DNA from: a bacterium
GTDB lineage: Bacteria; Sysuimicrobiota; Sysuimicrobiia; Sysuimicrobiales; Humicultoraceae
Assembly (NCBI GenBank): GCA_041497675.1
Contig: JBGQGY010000149.1
Coordinates: 1-7,526 of the forward strand
Direction of reading: 5' to 3'
Length of the DNA: 7,526 nt
Part shown: positions 1-7,526 of the stretch, piece by piece
Layout of the letters: each line of letters opens with the position of its first letter
Position numbering within the stretch: position 1 is the first letter of the stretch
Notes under the pieces: model-generated
Databases searched by the model: none
The model's input: only the letters and a program-made list of their open reading frames with translations
Told to the model about the DNA's origin: nothing
Position numbers and translations under genes: made by a program

Positions 1-3
1 TCA

Positions 4-771
4 TCAAACGGCCATCAGCTTCGACCGTAGCACGAACAGCCCGATGGTGTGCGTGACGATCGCACCGAGAGTTGCCGCGCCAAACGCCGGGGCCAGACCC
101 CACGAGAACAGAGTCCCGGACAGGATCGCGAAGAACAGCGCAAACGAAAACAATCCTATCATGACCCCTCGAAGCAGCCGGGTCGCCGCCGAAGCGCCTT
201 CGAATTGATGCGTGAATGCGGCCAGCACCGTCGCATAGACGGGAAACGGCGACAGCAGCCCGCTCAACCGCGGCCCCAACGACGCCGCCGTACCAGTGAT
301 CAACAGTACGATCGCGAGCGCCGCCACCATCCGCAGCGGGATTTCCCACCAGGGCGATGGACGCCGAACTTCCGCGGGCCCCCCCTCAGGCAGCACTACC
401 ACGACGGCGGCAAGCACCGCGAGGGTCCCAACGAACGCACCACCGAGCGACACCATGAAGCCGTTGAGCACGGACGTGACCACCAGAAACGACGCCCACC
501 CGACCAGCATGCTCGCCGTCCAGCCCCGACGCTTGGCCGTGACGCTGTAGGCCATGCAGAACCCCGCGACAGCGACCAGCCCCATGAGCGTGCCCTGGGC
601 GGCGTTCGACGCAAAGACGGTCCCTTGTTCCAACGCAAGGAACAGTGCGACCGGCCCCGACGTCCACGGGAGACCTGCGAGCCACCCGCCCACGGCCGGG
701 CCCCACCGCCGGCCCGCAAGGCTCAACACCCAGATCAGCACCGGGACAAGGATGAGTTTGAAGAGCAGCAT
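4..771 (-). CDS. Uncharacterised polytopic membrane protein (255 aa) with an internal two-fold repeat, possible transporter
   Basis: ORF with many hydrophobic segments. The halves carry similar motifs (GPAVGGWLAGLPWTS / GPRLSGLLSPFPVYA). An in-frame TAG two codons upstream fixes the ATG at 771. Ends in tandem TGA TGA (6-1). Confidence 0.85.
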   Translation of the reverse strand: MLLFKLILVPVLIWVLSLAGRRWGPAVGGWLAGLPWTSGPVALFLALEQGTVFASNAAQGTLMGLVAVAGFCMAYSVTAKRRGWTASMLVGWASFLVVTSVLNGFMVSLGGAFVGTLAVLAAVVVVLPEGGPAEVRRPSPWWEIPLRMVAALAIVLLITGTAASLGPRLSGLLSPFPVYATVLAAFTHQFEGASAATRLLRGVMIGLFSFALFFAILSGTLFSWGLAPAFGAATLGAIVTHTIGLFVLRSKLMAV

Positions 772-778
772 CGTCTAC

Positions 779-808
779 AGGATAGTCGCTCGGCGACCGC
801 GTAACCAA
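779..808 (-). promoter_or_regulatory. Putative sigma70-type promoter for the membrane protein, probably giving a leaderless mRNA
   Basis: Minus strand TTGGTT (808-803), 18 nt, TATCCT (784-779), then 7 nt to ATG 771. No Shine-Dalgarno sequence next to the ATG. Confidence 0.45.
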
Positions 809-826
809 TCCTCCGCGTACCAATCC
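797..826. repeat. Imperfect tandem direct repeat in a divergent intergenic region
   Basis: ccgcgtaaccaatcc (797-811) and ccgcgtaccaatcc (813-826), differing by a 1-nt indel. Confidence 0.7.
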
Positions 827-843
827 CGCCGGCGGAGGCGACC

Positions 844-1773
844 GTGGCGCTGCATCCCGAGGCGAAGGCCTTTCTCGATCAACGTGAGGCGATGGGCGTC
901 AAGTCCGCCACCGAACTGTCGGTTGAGGCGGCGCGCGAGCAGGCGGTGCGTGTTGCGCTTGCGGCGGGCCCCGGCGAACGCGTGGCCCACGTCGAAGACC
1001 GCTCCACACCGGGTCCGCACGGTCCGATCCCAATCCGTATCTACAGACCCGACGGCACGGGTCCCTTCCCCGTGCTCGTCTATTTCCACGGCGGCGGGTG
1101 GGTAGTAGGCAATCTCGAGACCGCCGATGTCTTTTGCCGGGCGATGACCTCCGGCACCGGCCATGTCGTGGTGTCCGTGAACTACCGTCACGCGCCTGAG
1201 CACAAGTTCCCGATCGCCGCCGACGACTCGTTTGCGGCGACACAGTGGGTTGCCACCCACGCGGCGACGTTCCACGGCGACGCCGCGCGCCTGATCGTCA
1301 GCGGGACGAGTGCGGGCGGCAACCTGGCCGCGGTCGTCGGCTTGATGGCGCGGGACCGCGGCGGCCCCGCGCTCATGTCTCAACTGTTGATCGTTCCGGT
1401 GATCGACTACAACTTCGAGACGTCATCATATCGCAAGAATGCCGACGGGTACGGCCTGACGGCCGACGCAATGCGCTGGTATTGGAAACAATATCTCCGC
1501 GGCGATGATGATGGCCGTCACCCCTACGCGTCACCGTTGCGCGCGCAGAGCCTGCGCGGTCTCCCGCCGGCGCTGGTCGTGACGGCGGAATTCGATCCGC
1601 TGCACGATGAAGGGGAGGCCTACGCGACGCGGCTGCGCGCCGAAGGCGTGCCCACGACCCTGTGGCGCCGCGAGGGGATGATCCACGGCTTTCTCGGTCC
1701 ACAGGCGAACGCGGAGATTGCGCGGGCCCTTAGGGAACAACCCCTATGGGCGCGGGATCGATCGGCGACCTGA
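844..1773 (+). CDS. Alpha/beta hydrolase, hormone-sensitive-lipase family (family IV) esterase, 309 aa
   Basis: YFHGGGW oxyanion motif, NYRHAPEHKFP, nucleophile GTSAGG, EFDPLHDEG (Asp) and IHGF (His). GTG start with GGAGG at 834-838. Confidence 0.95.
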   Translation: MALHPEAKAFLDQREAMGVKSATELSVEAAREQAVRVALAAGPGERVAHVEDRSTPGPHGPIPIRIYRPDGTGPFPVLVYFHGGGWVVGNLETADVFCRAMTSGTGHVVVSVNYRHAPEHKFPIAADDSFAATQWVATHAATFHGDAARLIVSGTSAGGNLAAVVGLMARDRGGPALMSQLLIVPVIDYNFETSSYRKNADGYGLTADAMRWYWKQYLRGDDDGRHPYASPLRAQSLRGLPPALVVTAEFDPLHDEGEAYATRLRAEGVPTTLWRREGMIHGFLGPQANAEIARALREQPLWARDRSAT

Positions 1774-1802
1774 TTGGCACACGTGGTCCGAGCCCCTATC
1801 CT
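1774..1802 (+). promoter_or_regulatory. Putative sigma70-type promoter for the beta-propeller lipoprotein
   Basis: TTGGCA (1774-1779), 17 nt, TATCCT (1797-1802). An in-frame GTG at 1809 lies 6 nt downstream. Confidence 0.55.
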
Positions 1803-1820
1803 GGACGGGTGAACGCATCC

Positions 1821-2957
1821 ATGCAGAACTCCCGACGTCAGGTCGCCGTCCTCTGCGTAATCGTCGCACTCTGCGCCGTCGCCGCAGGATGCTCGATGAA
1901 TCGCGTGGGACAGCCTGCGCCCGTCCCGGTCGCGAGCCCCGCCCCCCAGGCAGTCGCACCCACCCCACCCGCTGAACCCAACGTCTACGGCGCGCTGATG
2001 ACCGACAAGCTCGACCCTCGTCTGGCCGGGATCACGCCGCGGGTCTACGTGCCAAACGCGGGCTCGGGCACAGTCGATGTGATCGACCCCACGACCTACA
2101 AGATCGTCGACCACTTCAAGGTCGACAAGATCCCGCACCACATCACGCCGTCGTGGGACATGACGCGTCTGTACGTCAACAACACCGAATCGAACACGCT
2201 GACGGAGATCGACCCGAGAAGCGGCAAGCCCACCCGAACCATCCCGGTCGAAGACCCCTACAACCTCTACTACACGGCCGACGGCTCGAAGGCCATCGTC
2301 GTGGCCGAACGATTCCTGCGTCTGGACTTCAGGGATCCCCGCACGTGGGAACTCATCCGCAGCGTCCCGATCCCGTATCCGGGCGTCGACCACCTCGACT
2401 TCTCTGCGGATGGTCGCTTCCTGGTCGCCAGCACCGAGTATTCGGGGTACGTGGCCAAAGTCGATGTCGTCGAGATGGAACTCACAGGCCAGACAAAGGT
2501 GGGTGGTCTGCCCATCGACGTACGGCTGTCGCCCGACGGATCGGTCTTCTACGTGGCGAACCAGGGCCGCCACGGCGTCTCGGTGCTCGACGCGACCACG
2601 CTTCGCGAGATCGACTTCTTGCCCACGGGCAAAGGCGCCCACGGTTTCCACATCAGCCGGGATACGAAGTCGATGTACGTCAGCAACCGGCTGGAAGGCA
2701 CCATCTCGGTGATCGACACGGCCACGCGCAGCGTCCGCGCGACCTGGCGTATCGGCGGCAGCCCAGACATGATGCAGGTCTCACCCGACGGGCGGCAGTT
2801 GTGGGTCTCGAATCGGTTCCACAGCAGCGTCACAGTTGTTGACACCAGCACGGGTGACGTCGTGAAGAGGATCAAGGTCGGCAACAACCCGCACGGTCTC
2901 ACGTACTTCCCTCAACCGGGCAGGTTCAGCCTCGGGCACAACGGCGTGTATCGCTAA
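1821..2957 (+). CDS. YVTN/YncE-like beta-propeller repeat lipoprotein (start ATG 1821 or GTG 1809, rather than 1746)
   Basis: Signal peptide MQNSRRQVAVLCVIVALCAVAAG-C with lipobox, Pro-rich linker, then about seven repeats such as VYVPNAGSGTVDVID, LYVNNTESNTLTEID, FYVANQGRHGVSVLD, MYVSNRLEGTISVID and LWVSNRFHSSVTVVD. Confidence 0.9.
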   Translation: MQNSRRQVAVLCVIVALCAVAAGCSMNRVGQPAPVPVASPAPQAVAPTPPAEPNVYGALMTDKLDPRLAGITPRVYVPNAGSGTVDVIDPTTYKIVDHFKVDKIPHHITPSWDMTRLYVNNTESNTLTEIDPRSGKPTRTIPVEDPYNLYYTADGSKAIVVAERFLRLDFRDPRTWELIRSVPIPYPGVDHLDFSADGRFLVASTEYSGYVAKVDVVEMELTGQTKVGGLPIDVRLSPDGSVFYVANQGRHGVSVLDATTLREIDFLPTGKGAHGFHISRDTKSMYVSNRLEGTISVIDTATRSVRATWRIGGSPDMMQVSPDGRQLWVSNRFHSSVTVVDTSTGDVVKRIKVGNNPHGLTYFPQPGRFSLGHNGVYR

Positions 2958-2961
2958 CCGT

Positions 2962-4497
2962 TCAGCGGGCTGATCCGCCGCCTGACGTCAACTCCAGCCA
3001 CGCCTGCCAGCCGCCTTCCAACGCCCGGACGTTTCGAAACCCCCGGTGTCGGAGTTCCCGCGCCACACGGGCGCTGGTGGCTTCGTGTGTTCAGGCGCAG
3101 TACAGCACGATCGGCCCCGCGGGAGCCAGCTCCGCGACGCGTGCTGCGGCTTCGTCCGGCGCAAGGTGGACTGCCGTCGGAATGCGCCTCGGATCGCGGT
3201 CGAGGTCGCCCGGCTTGCGGACATCCACCACCAGGACCGGTTCTTGGCGTTCCAGCATCGCAGCCAGCTCGCGGACGGAGAGACGCGGGATCTCGTCCGC
3301 CTCGCGCCCGGGCACCAGCTCCACGTCGGGAGCGCGTGAGGCCCAGGCCACCAGCGGCGTTCCGGTCACACCGTGCAGCACCACCGATACCAGCACGACG
3401 ATCCCGGTCACAGCAAAGACCTGCGGGCCGCCCGCAGCACCGGACACCAGCACCAGCAGAGCCAGCAGGATGGAGTTCAGCCCGCGTGGACCGTGCCAGG
3501 CGGCAAACAACTTGTCCTGGATCGGGATGCGAAACCGGCTCAGGACGAGCATCAACACCACCGGCCGGCACACGAACAGCACGACCGCTGTAAACGCCAC
3601 AGTCCGCCAGTCGACCGCGGCCAGCGCGGGTCGGACCAGCGACGAGCCGAAGATCACGAACGTCAGCAACATCAGCAGTTCGGCGGTTGTCTCACCGTAT
3701 TCGAGGAAGCACTCGCAGAGATCGAGATCGCTGATCGCGATCGTCAGTCCCGCGACGAAGGCCGCCAGCAGACCGCTGGCGCCCAGCGCGTCGGCGGTCG
3801 CGTAGGCGATGAACGCCACGCCAAGCGAGTACAGCGACTGGTAGTCACGGCGCACGCCGATGCGCCGATCGACCCAGGTCAGACCCCGCATGCCCACCCA
3901 GGCGACCGCGACGCCGACTAGCGGACTCAGCACAAACACCGGAAGCGCGAACCCAACCCAGCTGGTCGCTGAGTGCAGGCGACCGCCCGCGACGGCAATG
4001 AGAATCAGGATCGCGGGCAGCGCCACCGCGTCGTTCATGCCGGACTCGACAGAGAGAATCTGCCTGACGGCCTGTGGGGTGCGCCGATCGCGCAAGACGT
4101 CGCGCAGCAACACCGGATCGGTCGACGCCAGAACGGCCCCCAACAGCAGCGAGGGGATGATCTCGAAGCTCAGAAGCCATCGGGCCGTTGCCGCGATGCT
4201 GAGGGCTGTCAGAATCGTGCCGGGTCCCAAGACGGCGATCGACGCAGGCCAGTCCTGCTTGAGCTGCTCGGTCTGCATCTTCAGCGCGTCCGTAAAGAGC
4301 GTGAGCGTCAAGGTGAGGATGCCGATCAAGACCACTTGTTCTGAATCCACAGGGAGCCGCATCAGACCCGTCTGGCCGAGCGCGAGCCCGATCGCCACAA
4401 AGAAGATCGCGCTGGAGAAGGGCCCGCGCTCCATGGCGCGTGACAGCAGCGCAGAGAGCACGATCACCAGGCCAACGATGCCGAGCATGACCGTCAA
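2962..4497 (-). CDS. CPA1/NhaP-type cation:proton antiporter fused to a C-terminal rhodanese-like domain, predicted selenoprotein (511 aa, Sec469 from TGA 3093-3091)
   Basis: TTG start with AGGAGG at 4509-4504. CPA1 motifs LASTDPV, ESGMND and GPRG. The rhodanese domain begins at LSVRELAAML..VLVVDVRK..RIPTAV..IVLYCA. Past the TGA the frame reads THEATSARVARELRHRGFRNVRALEGGWQAWLELTSGGGSAR*, which completes the domain, and stops at 2964-2962, 4 bp from the convergent gene. Confidence 0.88.
3058..3093 (-). promoter_or_regulatory. Sec UGA codon plus putative bacterial SECIS hairpin (antiporter-rhodanese)
   Basis: UGA, then 16 nt, then GCGCC-CGUGU-GGCGC (3074-3060). The stem extends by CC/GG across a bulged A. 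G sits at loop position 2, 23 nt after the UGA. Confidence 0.7.
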
Positions 4498-4562
4498 CGC
4501 CGTCCTCCTGAGACCATCCTCGGGGACCTGCTGTTTCTCGCCTGCGGAGTGCTTCCCCTCTG

Positions 4563-4591
4563 AAAAACACCGCGAGGGGCGGGGCGATGTT
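4563..4591 (-). terminator. Possible weak intrinsic terminator or attenuator hairpin between the two predicted selenoprotein genes
   Basis: Minus strand AACAUCGC-(10 nt)-GCGGUGUU (8 bp, one G-U pair) running into a 5-U tract, starting about 15 nt after the TAG at 4609-4607. Confidence 0.3.
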
Positions 4592-4606
4592 AAGAATTCG
4601 TGAATG

Positions 4607-5113
4607 CTAGCGGGCCAGCAGCGACTTGATGGTGGCGATCAGCTCGTCTTCCGTGTTTGGGCCGTGCCTCGCGAACCGCAGGTTGCCGTCCTTGGCGACC
4701 ACGGCCCAGTACGGCTGATAGGAGAATCCGTATGCCTTGGCAATCCTTCCATCACCGTCCCACCCGTTGGGAAACGTGAGCTTGTGCCGGTCCACAAAGG
4801 CCTTGCTCTTGTCGCGCGAATCCAACAGGCCGATGCCGACAAATTCCACACCCTTACCCTTCCAGTCCCGGTACGCACGCTCCCACACGGGGGCGTCGGC
4901 GTTGCAGGTAGGTCACCACTGTGTCCAGAATAGCAGGACTACCGCCGCGCCTTTTAGATCAGCCAGGGTCAGGGTTTTACCAGTGAACAATTCGAGGGTG
5001 AAGGGCGAAGCAAGGCCGCCCGGACCGCCGAGCGCCACAGGGGCGAGGATGATTCCGGTGCATAGCGCGACACACACCACGAGCACAATCTTCCGGCGGA
5101 TGTCCCAAGACAT
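4607..5113 (-). CDS. Exported TlpA/ResA-like (redoxin) thioredoxin-fold protein with a UxxC active site, predicted selenoprotein (168 aa, Sec67 from TGA 4915-4913)
   Basis: ORFs 4913..5200 and 4607..4888 share one frame and join through the TGA: FTLELFTGKTLTLADLKGAAVVLLFWTQW-U-PTCNADAPVWERAYRDWKGKGVEFVGI...IAKAYGFSYQPYWAVVAKDG. This matches the TlpA pattern FWAxWCxxC plus a cis-Pro loop. ATG 5113 lies 7 nt from AGGAGG (5126-5121). The N-terminus is basic then hydrophobic (signal or anchor). Confidence 0.92.
4873..4915 (-). promoter_or_regulatory. Sec UGA codon plus putative bacterial SECIS hairpin (thioredoxin-fold gene)
   Basis: UGA, then 10 nt, then ACGC-CG-ACGC-CCC-[CGUGU]-GGG-A-GCGU-GCGU (4902-4873). 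This is an 11-bp stem with two bulges and G at loop position 2, 25 nt after the UGA. Confidence 0.75.
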
Positions 5114-5189
5114 TGGCATCCCTCCTGCTAAGTAGTATCCACCCCGCGGAGTAACGAAAGTATAAAGATAGAAACCAGGAGGGGTTTGA
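5114..5189. promoter_or_regulatory. Compact 76-bp divergent promoter region with two Shine-Dalgarno sites
   Basis: Locally AT-rich. Minus-strand TATACT at 5164-5159. Plus-strand TTGGCA (5113-5118), 17 nt, TATCCA (5136-5141). AGGAGG on minus (5126-5121) and on plus (5177-5182). Confidence 0.5.
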
Positions 5190-6125
5190 ATGACCGACAT
5201 GCGGCAGTACGTCGTCGAAGAGTGGGCCGAAGATTACCACGCGGGACGTCTGGACCGGCGTGAATTCCTCCGCCGCATGACGATCATGGCCGGTGGCGCC
5301 GCGTTGGCGATTCCGCTGCTCTCTGCGCTGGGGCTCGCGGCTACTCCGGCGGAGTTGGACGCAGCGGCGGCGGCATCCCCGGCGATGGTCGCCGCGGCCG
5401 CTCCGGGAGTGACCGTACCGCCGGACGATCCGTCACTGACCGCCGGGATGATCACGTTCCCCATGGGGTCGGTTCAGGTGATCGCATACCTCGCGCAGCC
5501 CAGGGCCGTCGGACCACACCCTGCGGTGCTGGTCATCCACGAAAATCGCGGTCTGCTCGAGCACTTCAAAGATATCTCACGGCGGTTCGCTAAGGCCGGT
5601 TTCGTCGGCATCGCCGTCGATCTGGTCTCTCAGGAGGGCGGCACGGAGCGGTTTTCTGACTCAGCGCAGGTATCGTCGATCCTGGCGCAGGCTCCGCCGG
5701 AGCGACACGTCGAGACCATGAGCGCGGCCGTGCGACACCTCCAGGGATTGCCGAGCGTCCGGCGCGACCGTGTCGGTGCGATGGGTTTCTGCTTCGGCGG
5801 CGGGATGGTGTGGCGGCTGGCTACCGCCAACGCTGATCTGAGGGCCGCAGCGCCGTTCTATGGTTCGAATCCGCCGATGGCCGATGTCGCGAAGATCAAG
5901 GCGTCGATCCTGGCCGTCTATGGCGAGCTCGACACTCGCCTCAACGCCGGGATTCCGGCGATCCGCGAGGCGCTGCAGCGGGCCAACGTTGTCAGCGACT
6001 TTGTGATCTATCCCGGCGCCGACCACGCCTTCTTCAACGATACGACCGACCGCTACGTCCAGGGCGCCGCGCAGCAGGCCTGGACACGGGTCATGGCCTG
6101 GTTCGACAGGTACCTGAAAGCCTAG
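5190..6125 (+). CDS. Dienelactone hydrolase family protein (YghX-like) with a twin-arginine-like N-terminus, 311 aa
   Basis: VIHENRGL, nucleophile GFCFGG, GELD and YPGADHAFFND. N-terminal DYHAGRLDRREFLRR followed by a hydrophobic stretch. AGGAGG 7 nt upstream of the ATG. Confidence 0.95.
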   Translation: MTDMRQYVVEEWAEDYHAGRLDRREFLRRMTIMAGGAALAIPLLSALGLAATPAELDAAAAASPAMVAAAAPGVTVPPDDPSLTAGMITFPMGSVQVIAYLAQPRAVGPHPAVLVIHENRGLLEHFKDISRRFAKAGFVGIAVDLVSQEGGTERFSDSAQVSSILAQAPPERHVETMSAAVRHLQGLPSVRRDRVGAMGFCFGGGMVWRLATANADLRAAAPFYGSNPPMADVAKIKASILAVYGELDTRLNAGIPAIREALQRANVVSDFVIYPGADHAFFNDTTDRYVQGAAQQAWTRVMAWFDRYLKA

Positions 6126-6137
6126 CCGGCAGGACAC

Positions 6138-7526
6138 ATGCCCCCGACAGACATCTGTTACATGCCCGCCACCGAGATGGCGGAGGCGATCCGGCGTAAG
6201 ACGCTCTCGCCCGTGGAAGTCGTCGATGCCGTCTTCAAGCGTATTCACGCTCTGAACCCTATCCTCAACGCGTACTGCACCCTCACCGAAGAACGCGCGC
6301 GCGCCGATGCCCGGGCTGCCGAGACCGCGGTCATGCGCGGCGACACGCTGGGGCCGCTGCACGGTGTGCCCGTGTCGATCAAGGACCTGGTCCTTACGAA
6401 GGGCGTGCGCACGATGCGCGGCTCGAAGATCTACGAGCATTTCGTGCCCGACGAAGATGCACCGGTCGTGGAGCGCCTGCGGCAGGCGGGTGCGATCATG
6501 CTCGGCAAGACGACGACGCCGGAGTTCGGGTTCAAAGGCATGACCGACTCCCCGGTGACGGGGATCAGCCGCAACCCGTGGAACCCCACGCGCACGCCCG
6601 GCGGGTCATCGGGTGGCGCCGGGGCGGCCGTGGCGACCGGTATGGGGCCGCTGGCCGTGGGGTCCGACGGCGGCGGGTCGATTCGCATCCCCTCGTCGTT
6701 TTGCGGCATCTTCGGTATGAAGGCGTCGTTTGGGCGCGTCCCCGCCTATCCGCCGAGCGCCGTCGCGTTACTCTCCCATACGGGGCCGATGACGCGCACG
6801 ATCCGCGACGCGGCGTTGATGCTGAACGCGATAGTCGGGCCGGATGATCGCGACATCCACTCGCTGCCGAGCGACGGCACGGACTATCTCGCCGCGTGCG
6901 ATGGTGATCTCCGGGGGCTGCGTATCGCGTGGAGCGCAACACTTGGCTATGCGCCGGTCGAACCCGAGGTCGCACGGGTTGCCGAGGCGGCCGCGCGAGT
7001 GTTCGCCAGTGATTTGGGATGCCGTCTCGATGCCGCCGACCCCGGCTTCGAGAATCCGGCCTCCATTTTCAACGTGCTGTGGGTGGGCGGGCTGGGCACA
7101 TACCTGCAGCCGTACCTCGCCGAGTGGAAGAGTCGCCTGGATCCTGATCTCGCAAAGATGATCGACGGCCTGCCGCGCCTAACGGCGGCGGACTATGCCG
7201 GCGCGTTGATGCAAAAATCACTTGTCTGGGACAAGGCGCGAACGTTCTTCGAGCGCTATGACTTGCTCCTCACGCCGACAATGCCAACCGTCGCCTGGGA
7301 GGCCGGTAAGCCGGCGCCGGCGCACATCGCGGGCCGGCCCATCGCCGACTTCGGGTACACGCCGTTCACTTTTCCCTTCAACCTGACGGGCCAGCCGGCC
7401 GCGACGGTGCCCTGCGGGTTTTCATCCGACGGCCTGCCGATCGGCCTCCAAATCGTCGGGCGGCGCCTGGACGACGCGACAGTGCTGCGCGCCTGTGCGG
7501 CCTTCGAGGCCGCCAGGCCGTGGACA
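6138..7526 (+). CDS. Amidase-signature family amidase (GatA-like fold), 3'-partial
   Basis: Manual translation from ATG 6138: MPPTDICYMPATEMAEAIRRKTLSPVEVV..GPLHGVPVSIKDL..GKTTTPEFG..NPWNPTRTPGGSSGG..GSDGGGSIRIPSSFCG..FNLTGQPAATVPCG..GLPIGLQIVG. No stop before the window end. It starts 12 bp after the upstream gene, so likely co-transcribed. Confidence 0.95.
   Translation, partial: MPPTDICYMPATEMAEAIRRKTLSPVEVVDAVFKRIHALNPILNAYCTLTEERARADARAAETAVMRGDTLGPLHGVPVSIKDLVLTKGVRTMRGSKIYEHFVPDEDAPVVERLRQAGAIMLGKTTTPEFGFKGMTDSPVTGISRNPWNPTRTPGGSSGGAGAAVATGMGPLAVGSDGGGSIRIPSSFCGIFGMKASFGRVPAYPPSAVALLSHTGPMTRTIRDAALMLNAIVGPDDRDIHSLPSDGTDYLAACDGDLRGLRIAWSATLGYAPVEPEVARVAEAAARVFASDLGCRLDAADPGFENPASIFNVLWVGGLGTYLQPYLAEWKSRLDPDLAKMIDGLPRLTAADYAGALMQKSLVWDKARTFFERYDLLLTPTMPTVAWEAGKPAPAHIAGRPIADFGYTPFTFPFNLTGQPAATVPCGFSSDGLPIGLQIVGRRLDDATVLRACAAFEAARPWT

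Follow-up and report, generated by a model that had tools for sequence, protein, structure and literature searches.

A gene on the minus strand of a bacterial contig from the Sysuimicrobiota (GenBank assembly GCA_041497675.1, contig JBGQGY010000149.1, positions 1 to 7,526, referred to here in its entirety as the window) appears to encode a cation:proton antiporter of the CPA1 family that carries a selenocysteine (Sec)-containing rhodanese domain at its C-terminus. The complete gene occupies positions 2962..4497 and comprises 511 codons followed by a TGA stop at 2962-2964. UGA codon 469 (3091..3093, minus strand), which lies in the motif LYCAU, is very probably decoded as Sec by SelB and tRNA-Sec, assisted by a hairpin that follows within the coding sequence, so that a single gene would specify a selenoprotein of 511 residues. 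The assignment draws on conservation of the alignment column, selection on the downstream frame, the covarying hairpin, the Sec machinery of the genome and contigs from other sequencing runs. The explanation taken as a whole, a Sec-containing antiporter-rhodanese with the function proposed below, we also hold to be likely.

The open reading frame (ORF) predicted on the minus strand, 4497..3091, has a TTG start (4495-4497), encodes 468 amino acids and ends at the TGA 3093..3091 after ...PIVLYCA. Past this codon the frame stays open for 42 more codons, THEATSARVARELRHRGFRNVRALEGGWQAWLELTSGGGSAR, until a second TGA at 2964..2962; 4 bp separate this stop from the convergent ORF 1746..2957, which ends at 2957. 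Reading through gives a product of 511 amino acids, with the internal TGA as codon 469. A Shine-Dalgarno sequence, AGGAGG (4504..4509, minus strand), can be read directly 6 nt 5′ of the TTG, and this start is consistent with homologues beginning MT.ML.G. The G+C content of the window is 66%. A preliminary description made from the sequence had reported the halt at IVLYCA-TGA, the 42 further codons, the 4-bp gap to the convergent gene and the 511-residue product with TGA at codon 469, and it was correct in all these details. It had also taken the segment past the TGA for the C-terminal half of a rhodanese. A single Pfam Rhodanese match (PF00581; residues 408-502, positions 2992..3276, minus strand) does run unbroken across the TGA and covers profile positions 2-101 of 102, with 51.9 bits against a gathering threshold of 22.2 (1.1e-13).

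Relatives were sought in 61 related genomes, the source genome among them. The tally partly uses unpublished genomes, and the main conclusions are independent of these. Orthologues, full-length or limited by the ends of contigs, occur in seven other genomes (G002, G011, G016, G022, G027, G029 and G043) at 71-96% identity, each with one in-frame TGA within the match. Because the G043 match sets in 3 nt before its ORF, an extra TAA within it probably lies one codon ahead of the start of that gene. The TGA falls in the same alignment column in all eight orthologues, whose aligned C-terminal domains are 66-90% identical, and four more distant rhodanese genes (L027, from the unpublished genome G019, L028, L030 and L032) share it, giving 12 of 12 loci. 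L030 (G038:C399, ~1543-1608, minus strand) has two TGAs, reading FY-U-T-U-TAEASAA, with Sec also at the first Cys of the pair.

Contigs from four of four other public sequencing runs, one of which may be the source sample, span positions 3084-3113 and show no alternative letter at 3091-3093. The source genome is a metagenome assembly of 272 contigs (98.6% complete), a circumstance in which a sequencing or assembly error might create such a codon. The same TGA nevertheless recurs in seven other genomes, in the contigs of all four runs and, across the wider family, in at least 120 contigs from metagenomes, which makes an error of this kind barely conceivable.

The ratio of nonsynonymous to synonymous substitution rates (dN/dS) was estimated by the Nei-Gojobori method for the 21 pairs formed by seven orthologues; the locus L022, whose contig ends 15 codons past the TGA, was excluded. 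It amounts to 0.19 for the antiporter part and to 0.135 for the rhodanese half that precedes the TGA; the codons past the TGA give 0.31, and those past the hairpin 0.25. As judged from these ratios, the conserved frame downstream of the TGA is under purifying selection. The synonymous rate dS is 0.37 over the hairpin versus 0.9-1.2 elsewhere.

The machinery for Sec insertion is encoded in the source genome. Genes for SelA (1.1e-138) and for the winged-helix domain of SelB (1.2e-18), together with tRNA-Sec (62.8 bits; anticodon TCA according to ARAGORN), lie within about 6 kb of contig C24 (L001, L005 and L006; G000:C24:23937-29603). The selD gene (7.2e-118) is located apart from this cluster, at G000:C39:15011-15934 (L014), and has one in-frame TGA of its own; its product is probably a Sec-containing selenophosphate synthetase. 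SelA was found in four of the five orthologue genomes tested, and the fifth, G027, is only 84% complete.

Downstream of the UGA we found a hairpin resembling a selenocysteine insertion sequence (SECIS), GCGCC-CGUGU-GGCGC, at 3060..3074 on the minus strand (stem 3074..3070 with 3064..3060), identified by covariation and by RNAalifold. The stem begins 16 nt and the loop 21 nt past the UGA. Bacterial Sec insertion calls for a stem-loop shortly past the UGA with a G in the apical loop, and the program bSECISearch uses a distance window of 16-37 nt; both the G-bearing apical loop and the distance agree with this. Ten of the 12 loci share the bases AGCGCCCGTGTGGCGC without change, L026 differing at one loop base and L030, which has a shifted variant of the hairpin, at more.

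A scan of metagenomes with a pattern that fixed only the amino-acid motif Y-C-[AT]-TGA-x-x-E-A-[ST]-S-A-R revealed at least 120 contigs with the Sec form of the module, from which 80 loci were fetched. A gapless alignment was made of 85 distinct 66-nt windows, 10 genomic and 75 metagenomic, leaving out L027, L022 and the broken L164. It has the consensus GCGCC-CGKGU-GGCGC, and columns 26-30 pair with columns 36-40 in 425 of 425 cells, that is in 85 of 85 Sec forms, the 3′ arm of the stem being unconstrained by the scan pattern. The stem shows seven compensatory double changes (CG to UA six times, GC to CG once) and four U-G pairs. None of 500 shuffles matched the observed covariation, slid controls were 20-66% paired, and RNAalifold independently returned exactly the same five pairs. 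A C closes the stem in 84 of 85 sequences, though the codon encodes R, H, L and Q among others, always with a C-initial codon. Of 31 natural Cys forms, in which synonymous sites drift, only 7 keep all five pairs. The single-sequence fold of 81 nt of the window (z = -1.73) is not significant alone. As a separate observation, each of the four runs has extra 31-letter contigs stacked exactly over positions 3060-3086, which comprise the hairpin with its 5′ flank, and the summed depth peaks there; these 27 bases are probably common to many genes or organisms in the samples.

These data also bear on the alternative in which the TGA is a genuine stop codon or the lesion of a pseudogene, leaving a 468-residue antiporter with half a rhodanese, or is read through or recoded as some other amino acid. 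Gene callers do terminate at this codon, and the downstream RNA has no Rfam family match: a scan of positions 2900-5300 (E up to 10) gave three chance-level matches, none at the hairpin. Against this stand the one-column TGA across orthologues of 66-90% identity, purifying selection downstream and the covarying hairpin. A genome-wide reassignment of TGA is countered by the gene itself, because TGA also terminates it at 2964..2962. We regard this alternative as very unlikely. Sec at codon 469 had been proposed in the preliminary description, and the conserved column, the downstream selection, the hairpin and the Sec machinery all agree with it. Of the refuting conditions named there (a genome without the sel genes, a TGA confined to this assembly, homologues that do not keep the frame past the TGA), each was contradicted by the data.

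Cys occurs naturally at the UGA position elsewhere in the family. It is found in P0029 and P0031, in 31 Cys-form loci, one of them the CPA1 fusion L066, and in the database proteins P0036, P0038, P0046, P0050 and P0063. Since one of the two patterns of a further scan for related loci was limited to TGY codons, that scan yields no Sec:Cys ratio. In public annotation the Sec forms are cut at the UGA, as had been anticipated. All 27 antiporter matches in a database of 5.8 billion proteins are truncated, the longest having at most 478 amino acids, and the nine that were fetched all terminate in YCA. Among the best 150 of 9605 cluster representatives, 19 have the C-terminus [YF]C[ATW] and are likewise truncated.

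The rhodanese domain belongs to a subtype that has already been curated. It matches the NCBIfam model NF041203, rhodanese_LYCAU ('rhodanese-related (seleno)protein'), with 90.4 bits (6.9e-26) over profile positions 16-118 of 126, and the motif IVLYCAU is present. The domain, the LYCAU or CxU motif and the place of Sec are the same. In the model, by contrast, the domain is a protein on its own (about 126 residues), whereas here it forms the C-terminus of an antiporter with 13 helices. The match to GlpE reaches 26.9 bits versus a cut-off of 102. In gapless alignments to both domains of the rhodanese 6mxv (Protein Data Bank, PDB), the Cys of YFYCGGGFRS and that of YLYCGSGFRS are matched by Sec469. 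In a FastTree phylogeny of 115 rhodanese domains, the CPA1-fused forms do not make one clade and Sec forms are mixed with Cys forms; as the domain is short, L064 was mislabelled and the tree was read without support values, it gives no number of fusion events. One fused homologue, P0049, reads VVYCATPREATS, with Thr at the Sec/Cys position.

The same module is joined to several unrelated membrane proteins. Pfam analysis of 79 read-through ORFs from the metagenome loci (L164 having been dropped, its frame broken) gave 45 with VTT (DedA) and Rhodanese, seven with Na_H_Exchanger and Rhodanese (five complete, two cut at contig ends), three with Trypsin_2, a membrane helix and Rhodanese, and 24 with Rhodanese only, which include fragments and small proteins, several of them with signal peptides. 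The three Trypsin_2 ORFs (L092, L128 and L148) have the layout of a secreted protease followed by one membrane helix and then the Sec-rhodanese across the membrane; in L128 the rhodanese part is cut at the contig end and has no Pfam match. A further fusion, L052, joins DUF4760 to the Sec-rhodanese.

The Sec module is most often carried by the DedA fusions, which occur in CxC and CxU versions. These fusions share with the antiporter fusion the rhodanese subtype, the hairpin and a partner with its own conserved Cys pair, and differ from it in the membrane partner. A basic stretch past the last helix suggests a C-terminal juxtamembrane position of the domain in these fusions as well. The pair, C-[RK]-x-S-x-x-P-[DE]-[ST]-C, is present in the DedA part of 41 of 42 recognised fused forms, and the 42nd has C-x8-C; the genome's only non-fused DedA protein (L216, n = 1) has no cysteine at the pair position. 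Cys versions of the DedA fusion comprise P0029, P0031 and 29 DedA-type Cys forms, which bears out the earlier remark that DedA-fused rhodaneses of the YCxCPxE type carry Cys at the TGA position.

Cys versions of the antiporter fusion exist as well. L066, from a Chloroflexi metagenome-assembled genome (532 amino acids, YCTCRNEATSA), and P0036, P0038, P0046, P0050 and P0063 have the same architecture of Na_H_Exchanger and Rhodanese. They also share a cysteine loop in the antiporter, which reads LCDCF in all of these database proteins, whereas L066 has LCDSF. Unlike the window gene they have Cys (TGY) in place of TGA, and the hairpin is not generally kept among Cys forms.

The antiporter part is a CPA1 Na_H_Exchanger domain of NhaP type (PF00999, 165.7 bits, 1.9e-48), residues 14-385, encoded at 3343..4458 on the minus strand. 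The membrane domains of PaNhaP (PDB 4cz8, E 2.5e-13) and MjNhaP1 (PDB 4czb) align with it over residues 13-379. The alignment with PaNhaP identifies the motifs TD (T126-D127), ND (N155-D156) and GPRG (R338) and the acidic helix-3 residue D70, among which are the motifs of the CPA1 ion site. TD, ND and GPRG are kept in the fused forms, except for Lys or Ser in place of the GPRG Arg in 3 of 15. In contrast to the window protein, the solved PaNhaP and MjNhaP1 have no C-terminal rhodanese, and PaNhaP has no CxC in the aligned loop between helices 9 and 10.

An AlphaFold2 model built from 15 fused sequences has a mean predicted local distance difference test score (pLDDT) of 83.3 and a predicted template modelling score (pTM) of 0.71. 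It shows 13 long helices, a disordered linker at 388-400 and a confidently predicted rhodanese domain, with pLDDT of 80-90 over the ten 10-residue blocks from 401 to 500. Prediction of a complex between the membrane domain and the rhodanese domain of the Cys homologue P0036 gave a score of 0.01, which counts neither way.

The cysteine loop has the sequence LCECF in the window protein (3706..3720, minus strand), with Cys261 and Cys263 at the start of a helix that the model places at residues 258-294. In an alignment of 15 fused forms that are 36-75% identical to the window protein, the motif reads LC[DE]CF: Cys261 is conserved in 15 of 15 and Cys263 in 14 of 15, the Chloroflexi form L066 having Ser (LCDSF). 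The loop and the rhodanese domain should face one and the same side of the membrane, because four membrane helices separate the loop from the C-terminus. We infer this side to be the cytoplasmic one, going by the topology of NhaP.

Classification of the best 150 of the 9605 cluster representatives ties the motif to the fusion. LCxCF is present in 18 of 18 Sec-truncated rhodanese forms and in all Cys-type rhodanese forms; these are P0046, P0050 and four others, among them P0049, where Thr takes the place of Sec. The set also contains 86 sequences with tails shorter than 45 residues, 26 fragments and 16 with other tails, many resembling frameshifted translations. Two members of the LCDCF clade, P0037 and P0039, carry the first 37 positions of the AhpC/TSA profile in place of the rhodanese and end in ...F[YF]RGHW, right before the AhpC/TSA redox residue. 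Going by the position of this break, their tail looks like another Sec fusion truncated by gene calling.

Two genes adjoin the antiporter gene. The convergent ORF 1746..2957 encodes a YNCE-like beta-propeller protein (Pfam). Directly upstream, at 5200..4607 on the minus strand, lies a gene for a membrane-anchored thioredoxin-fold protein of ResA/TlpA type, split into two ORFs by gene callers and containing an in-frame TGA at 4915..4913 in the context FWTQW-U-PTC. UxxC thiol-disulfide oxidoreductases are a known type of selenoprotein. In a set of 41 genomes, all 18 of the best-scoring matches outside the source genome that cover the active site (45-85% identity) carry this TGA, the tally taking in the unpublished genomes G019 and G010; more distant ResA/TlpA-like paralogues are without it. 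The pair formed by this gene and the Sec-rhodanese antiporter is also adjacent in G002, and in G001, G022 and the unpublished G019 a ResA/TlpA-like copy lies 2.5-6 kb from a Sec-rhodanese gene. Searching the flanks of 10 orthologue loci for the ORFs of the window gave no match (E up to 1e-5), so no conserved operon partner was found by this comparison.

What might such a protein do? Cys467-x-Sec469 could serve as a chalcogen-based redox or sulfane-sulfur sensor on the C-terminus of the antiporter, a genuine possibility that we hold with some reserve. Oxidation, persulfidation or electrophile attack on this pair would switch cation/H+ exchange, the signal possibly being relayed to Cys261/Cys263, and the outcome would be a coupling of ion and pH homeostasis to the sulfur/redox state of the cell, as in the gating of KefC. 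In the CPA2 antiporters KefC and KefB, K+ efflux is gated by glutathione adducts and a cytoplasmic C-terminal domain senses thiol chemistry. This domain is of the KTN/RCK type and glutathione is a non-covalent ligand; the likeness would be one of function only, and we claim no homology of the regulatory domains. We favour a sensor or regulator over a dedicated enzyme because the module joins unrelated membrane proteins that have conserved Cys pairs of their own. The intact CPA1 motifs, the four unrelated partners, the tracking of fusions by LCxCF, the AhpC/TSA swaps and the Cys pairs of DedA all count for it. A broader proposal, which we offer only tentatively, is that a CPA1 subfamily consists of selenium-dependent redox-gated exchangers with an invariant LCxCF on the membrane side of the C-terminus and an interchangeable C-terminal module, either a Sec/Cys rhodanese or a peroxiredoxin-like domain that is cut at its redox residue. 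The Sec-rhodanese would then be a portable sensor, also controlling DedA and a membrane-anchored protease by thiol-selenol exchange with the Cys pairs of its partners.

Catalysis offers a different account of the same residues. The protein could be a membrane-tethered, Sec-dependent sulfur/selenium transferase or reductase acting on persulfide, polysulfide, thiosulfate or selenite, with Cys467 as resolving residue and the antiporter as anchor or as a supply of protons or ions. Sec falls on the catalytic Cys of 6mxv, stand-alone members of the family exist, some with signal peptides, and the gene directly upstream encodes a Sec-containing TlpA/ResA-like protein. Relatives, moreover, oxidise sulfide: members of the Sysuimicrobiota mostly carry sulfide:quinone oxidoreductase, according to the paper describing them (PMC11604079). 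The range of four unrelated partners, however, fits a sensor better than a substrate-specific enzyme, the partners bear conserved Cys pairs of their own, and the domain has no classical CRxGxR loop. We therefore consider a dedicated enzyme somewhat improbable.

A sensor might also respond to soft metals or metalloids rather than to redox state, with Cys467, Sec469, Cys261 and Cys263 forming a four-ligand site (for Hg, Cd, Cu(I) or As) that gates the antiporter. The conservation of four chalcogen ligands, all on a single side of the membrane, would suit this, as would a weak NCBIfam match to the chromate-resistance rhodanese ChrE (3.5e-8). Selenoproteins of transporter type are mostly linked to metal or metalloid resistance (PMC13188914). 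The window, on the other hand, has no metal-resistance genes, the neighbourhood is unconserved, and in the Chloroflexi Cys form Cys263 is replaced by Ser. A metal sensor is in our view unlikely.

Several observations weigh against the interpretation of the gene as a redox-sensing Sec antiporter. The Sec assignment is a comparative one, drawn from sequences, and the public sequencing runs listed as containing this stretch include no RNA run. The hairpin has only 5 bp, and for 75 of the 85 sequences the scan pattern had fixed or restricted 3 of the 10 stem columns (in the 5′ arm). With NF041203 the product reaches 90.4 bits (86.3 in the genome search), under the cut-off of 115. Classical thiosulfate sulfurtransferases have the loop CRxGxR, and the active-site loop here, U-T-H-E-A-T, is without their Arg. 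As to the CxU pair of the preliminary description, the gapless 6mxv alignments put Sec rather than Cys467 on the catalytic Cys; in the alignment to 6pfz, which contains a 2-residue gap, it is Cys467 and not Sec469 that falls there. The structural model, with a strand at 463-466, Cys467-Ala468-Sec469 in a turn and a helix from 470, does not settle the catalytic position. All NCBIfam antiporter equivalogs score under their cut-offs (the K+/H+ antiporter equivalog NF003716 has 185.9 bits versus 355). The association of LCxCF with fusion is not phylogenetically independent, because the motif marks the clade nearest the query; and among the 86 relatives with short tails, LCxCF occurs without any C-terminal domain in 4 and another CxC in 10, with neither in 72. 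Contact between the loop and the rhodanese domain is putative.

To our knowledge, nearly all selenoproteins are soluble redox enzymes. The preliminary description regarded Sec-containing rhodanese-like proteins as known and the antiporter fusion as new to it. The CxU Sec-rhodanese is both curated (NF041203) and reviewed, being listed as 'form 3' (PMC13188914) and, in a 2022 review, as 'COG0607 form 2, CxU' (PMC9312934), so of the two only the fusion seems new. The word 'antiporter' is absent from both of these selenoprotein reviews. The transport-related selenoproteins listed in PMC13188914 are a mercuric transport protein, an E1-E2 ATPase, YeeE/YedE, SaoP/SaoB/SaoX and the SO_0444 Cu/Zn efflux transporter; these too have Sec in a membrane transport protein, but none is a cation:proton antiporter. 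Full-text literature searches returned no paper on a Sec-rhodanese-antiporter fusion, as judged by titles and the beginnings of abstracts. A full-text search on a rhodanese domain fused to an antiporter gave only an unrelated preprint, and one on LYCAU only unrelated words. The accessible part of the Sysuimicrobiota/CSP1-3 paper (PMC11604079) contains no occurrence of 'seleno', 'antiporter' or 'rhodanese'. As far as these searches reach, three things are new: the fusion to an antiporter, the loop with its cysteines and the variety of partners.

Because public annotation truncates this family at the UGA, counts of selenoproteomes and catalogues of domain architectures are understated. The natural Sec and Cys variants, together with the co-conserved cysteine loop, constitute a ready set of mutants for experimental tests. 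A cation:proton antiporter bearing Sec, if it is indeed one, would form a direct link between the redox chemistry of chalcogens and the homeostasis of ions and pH.

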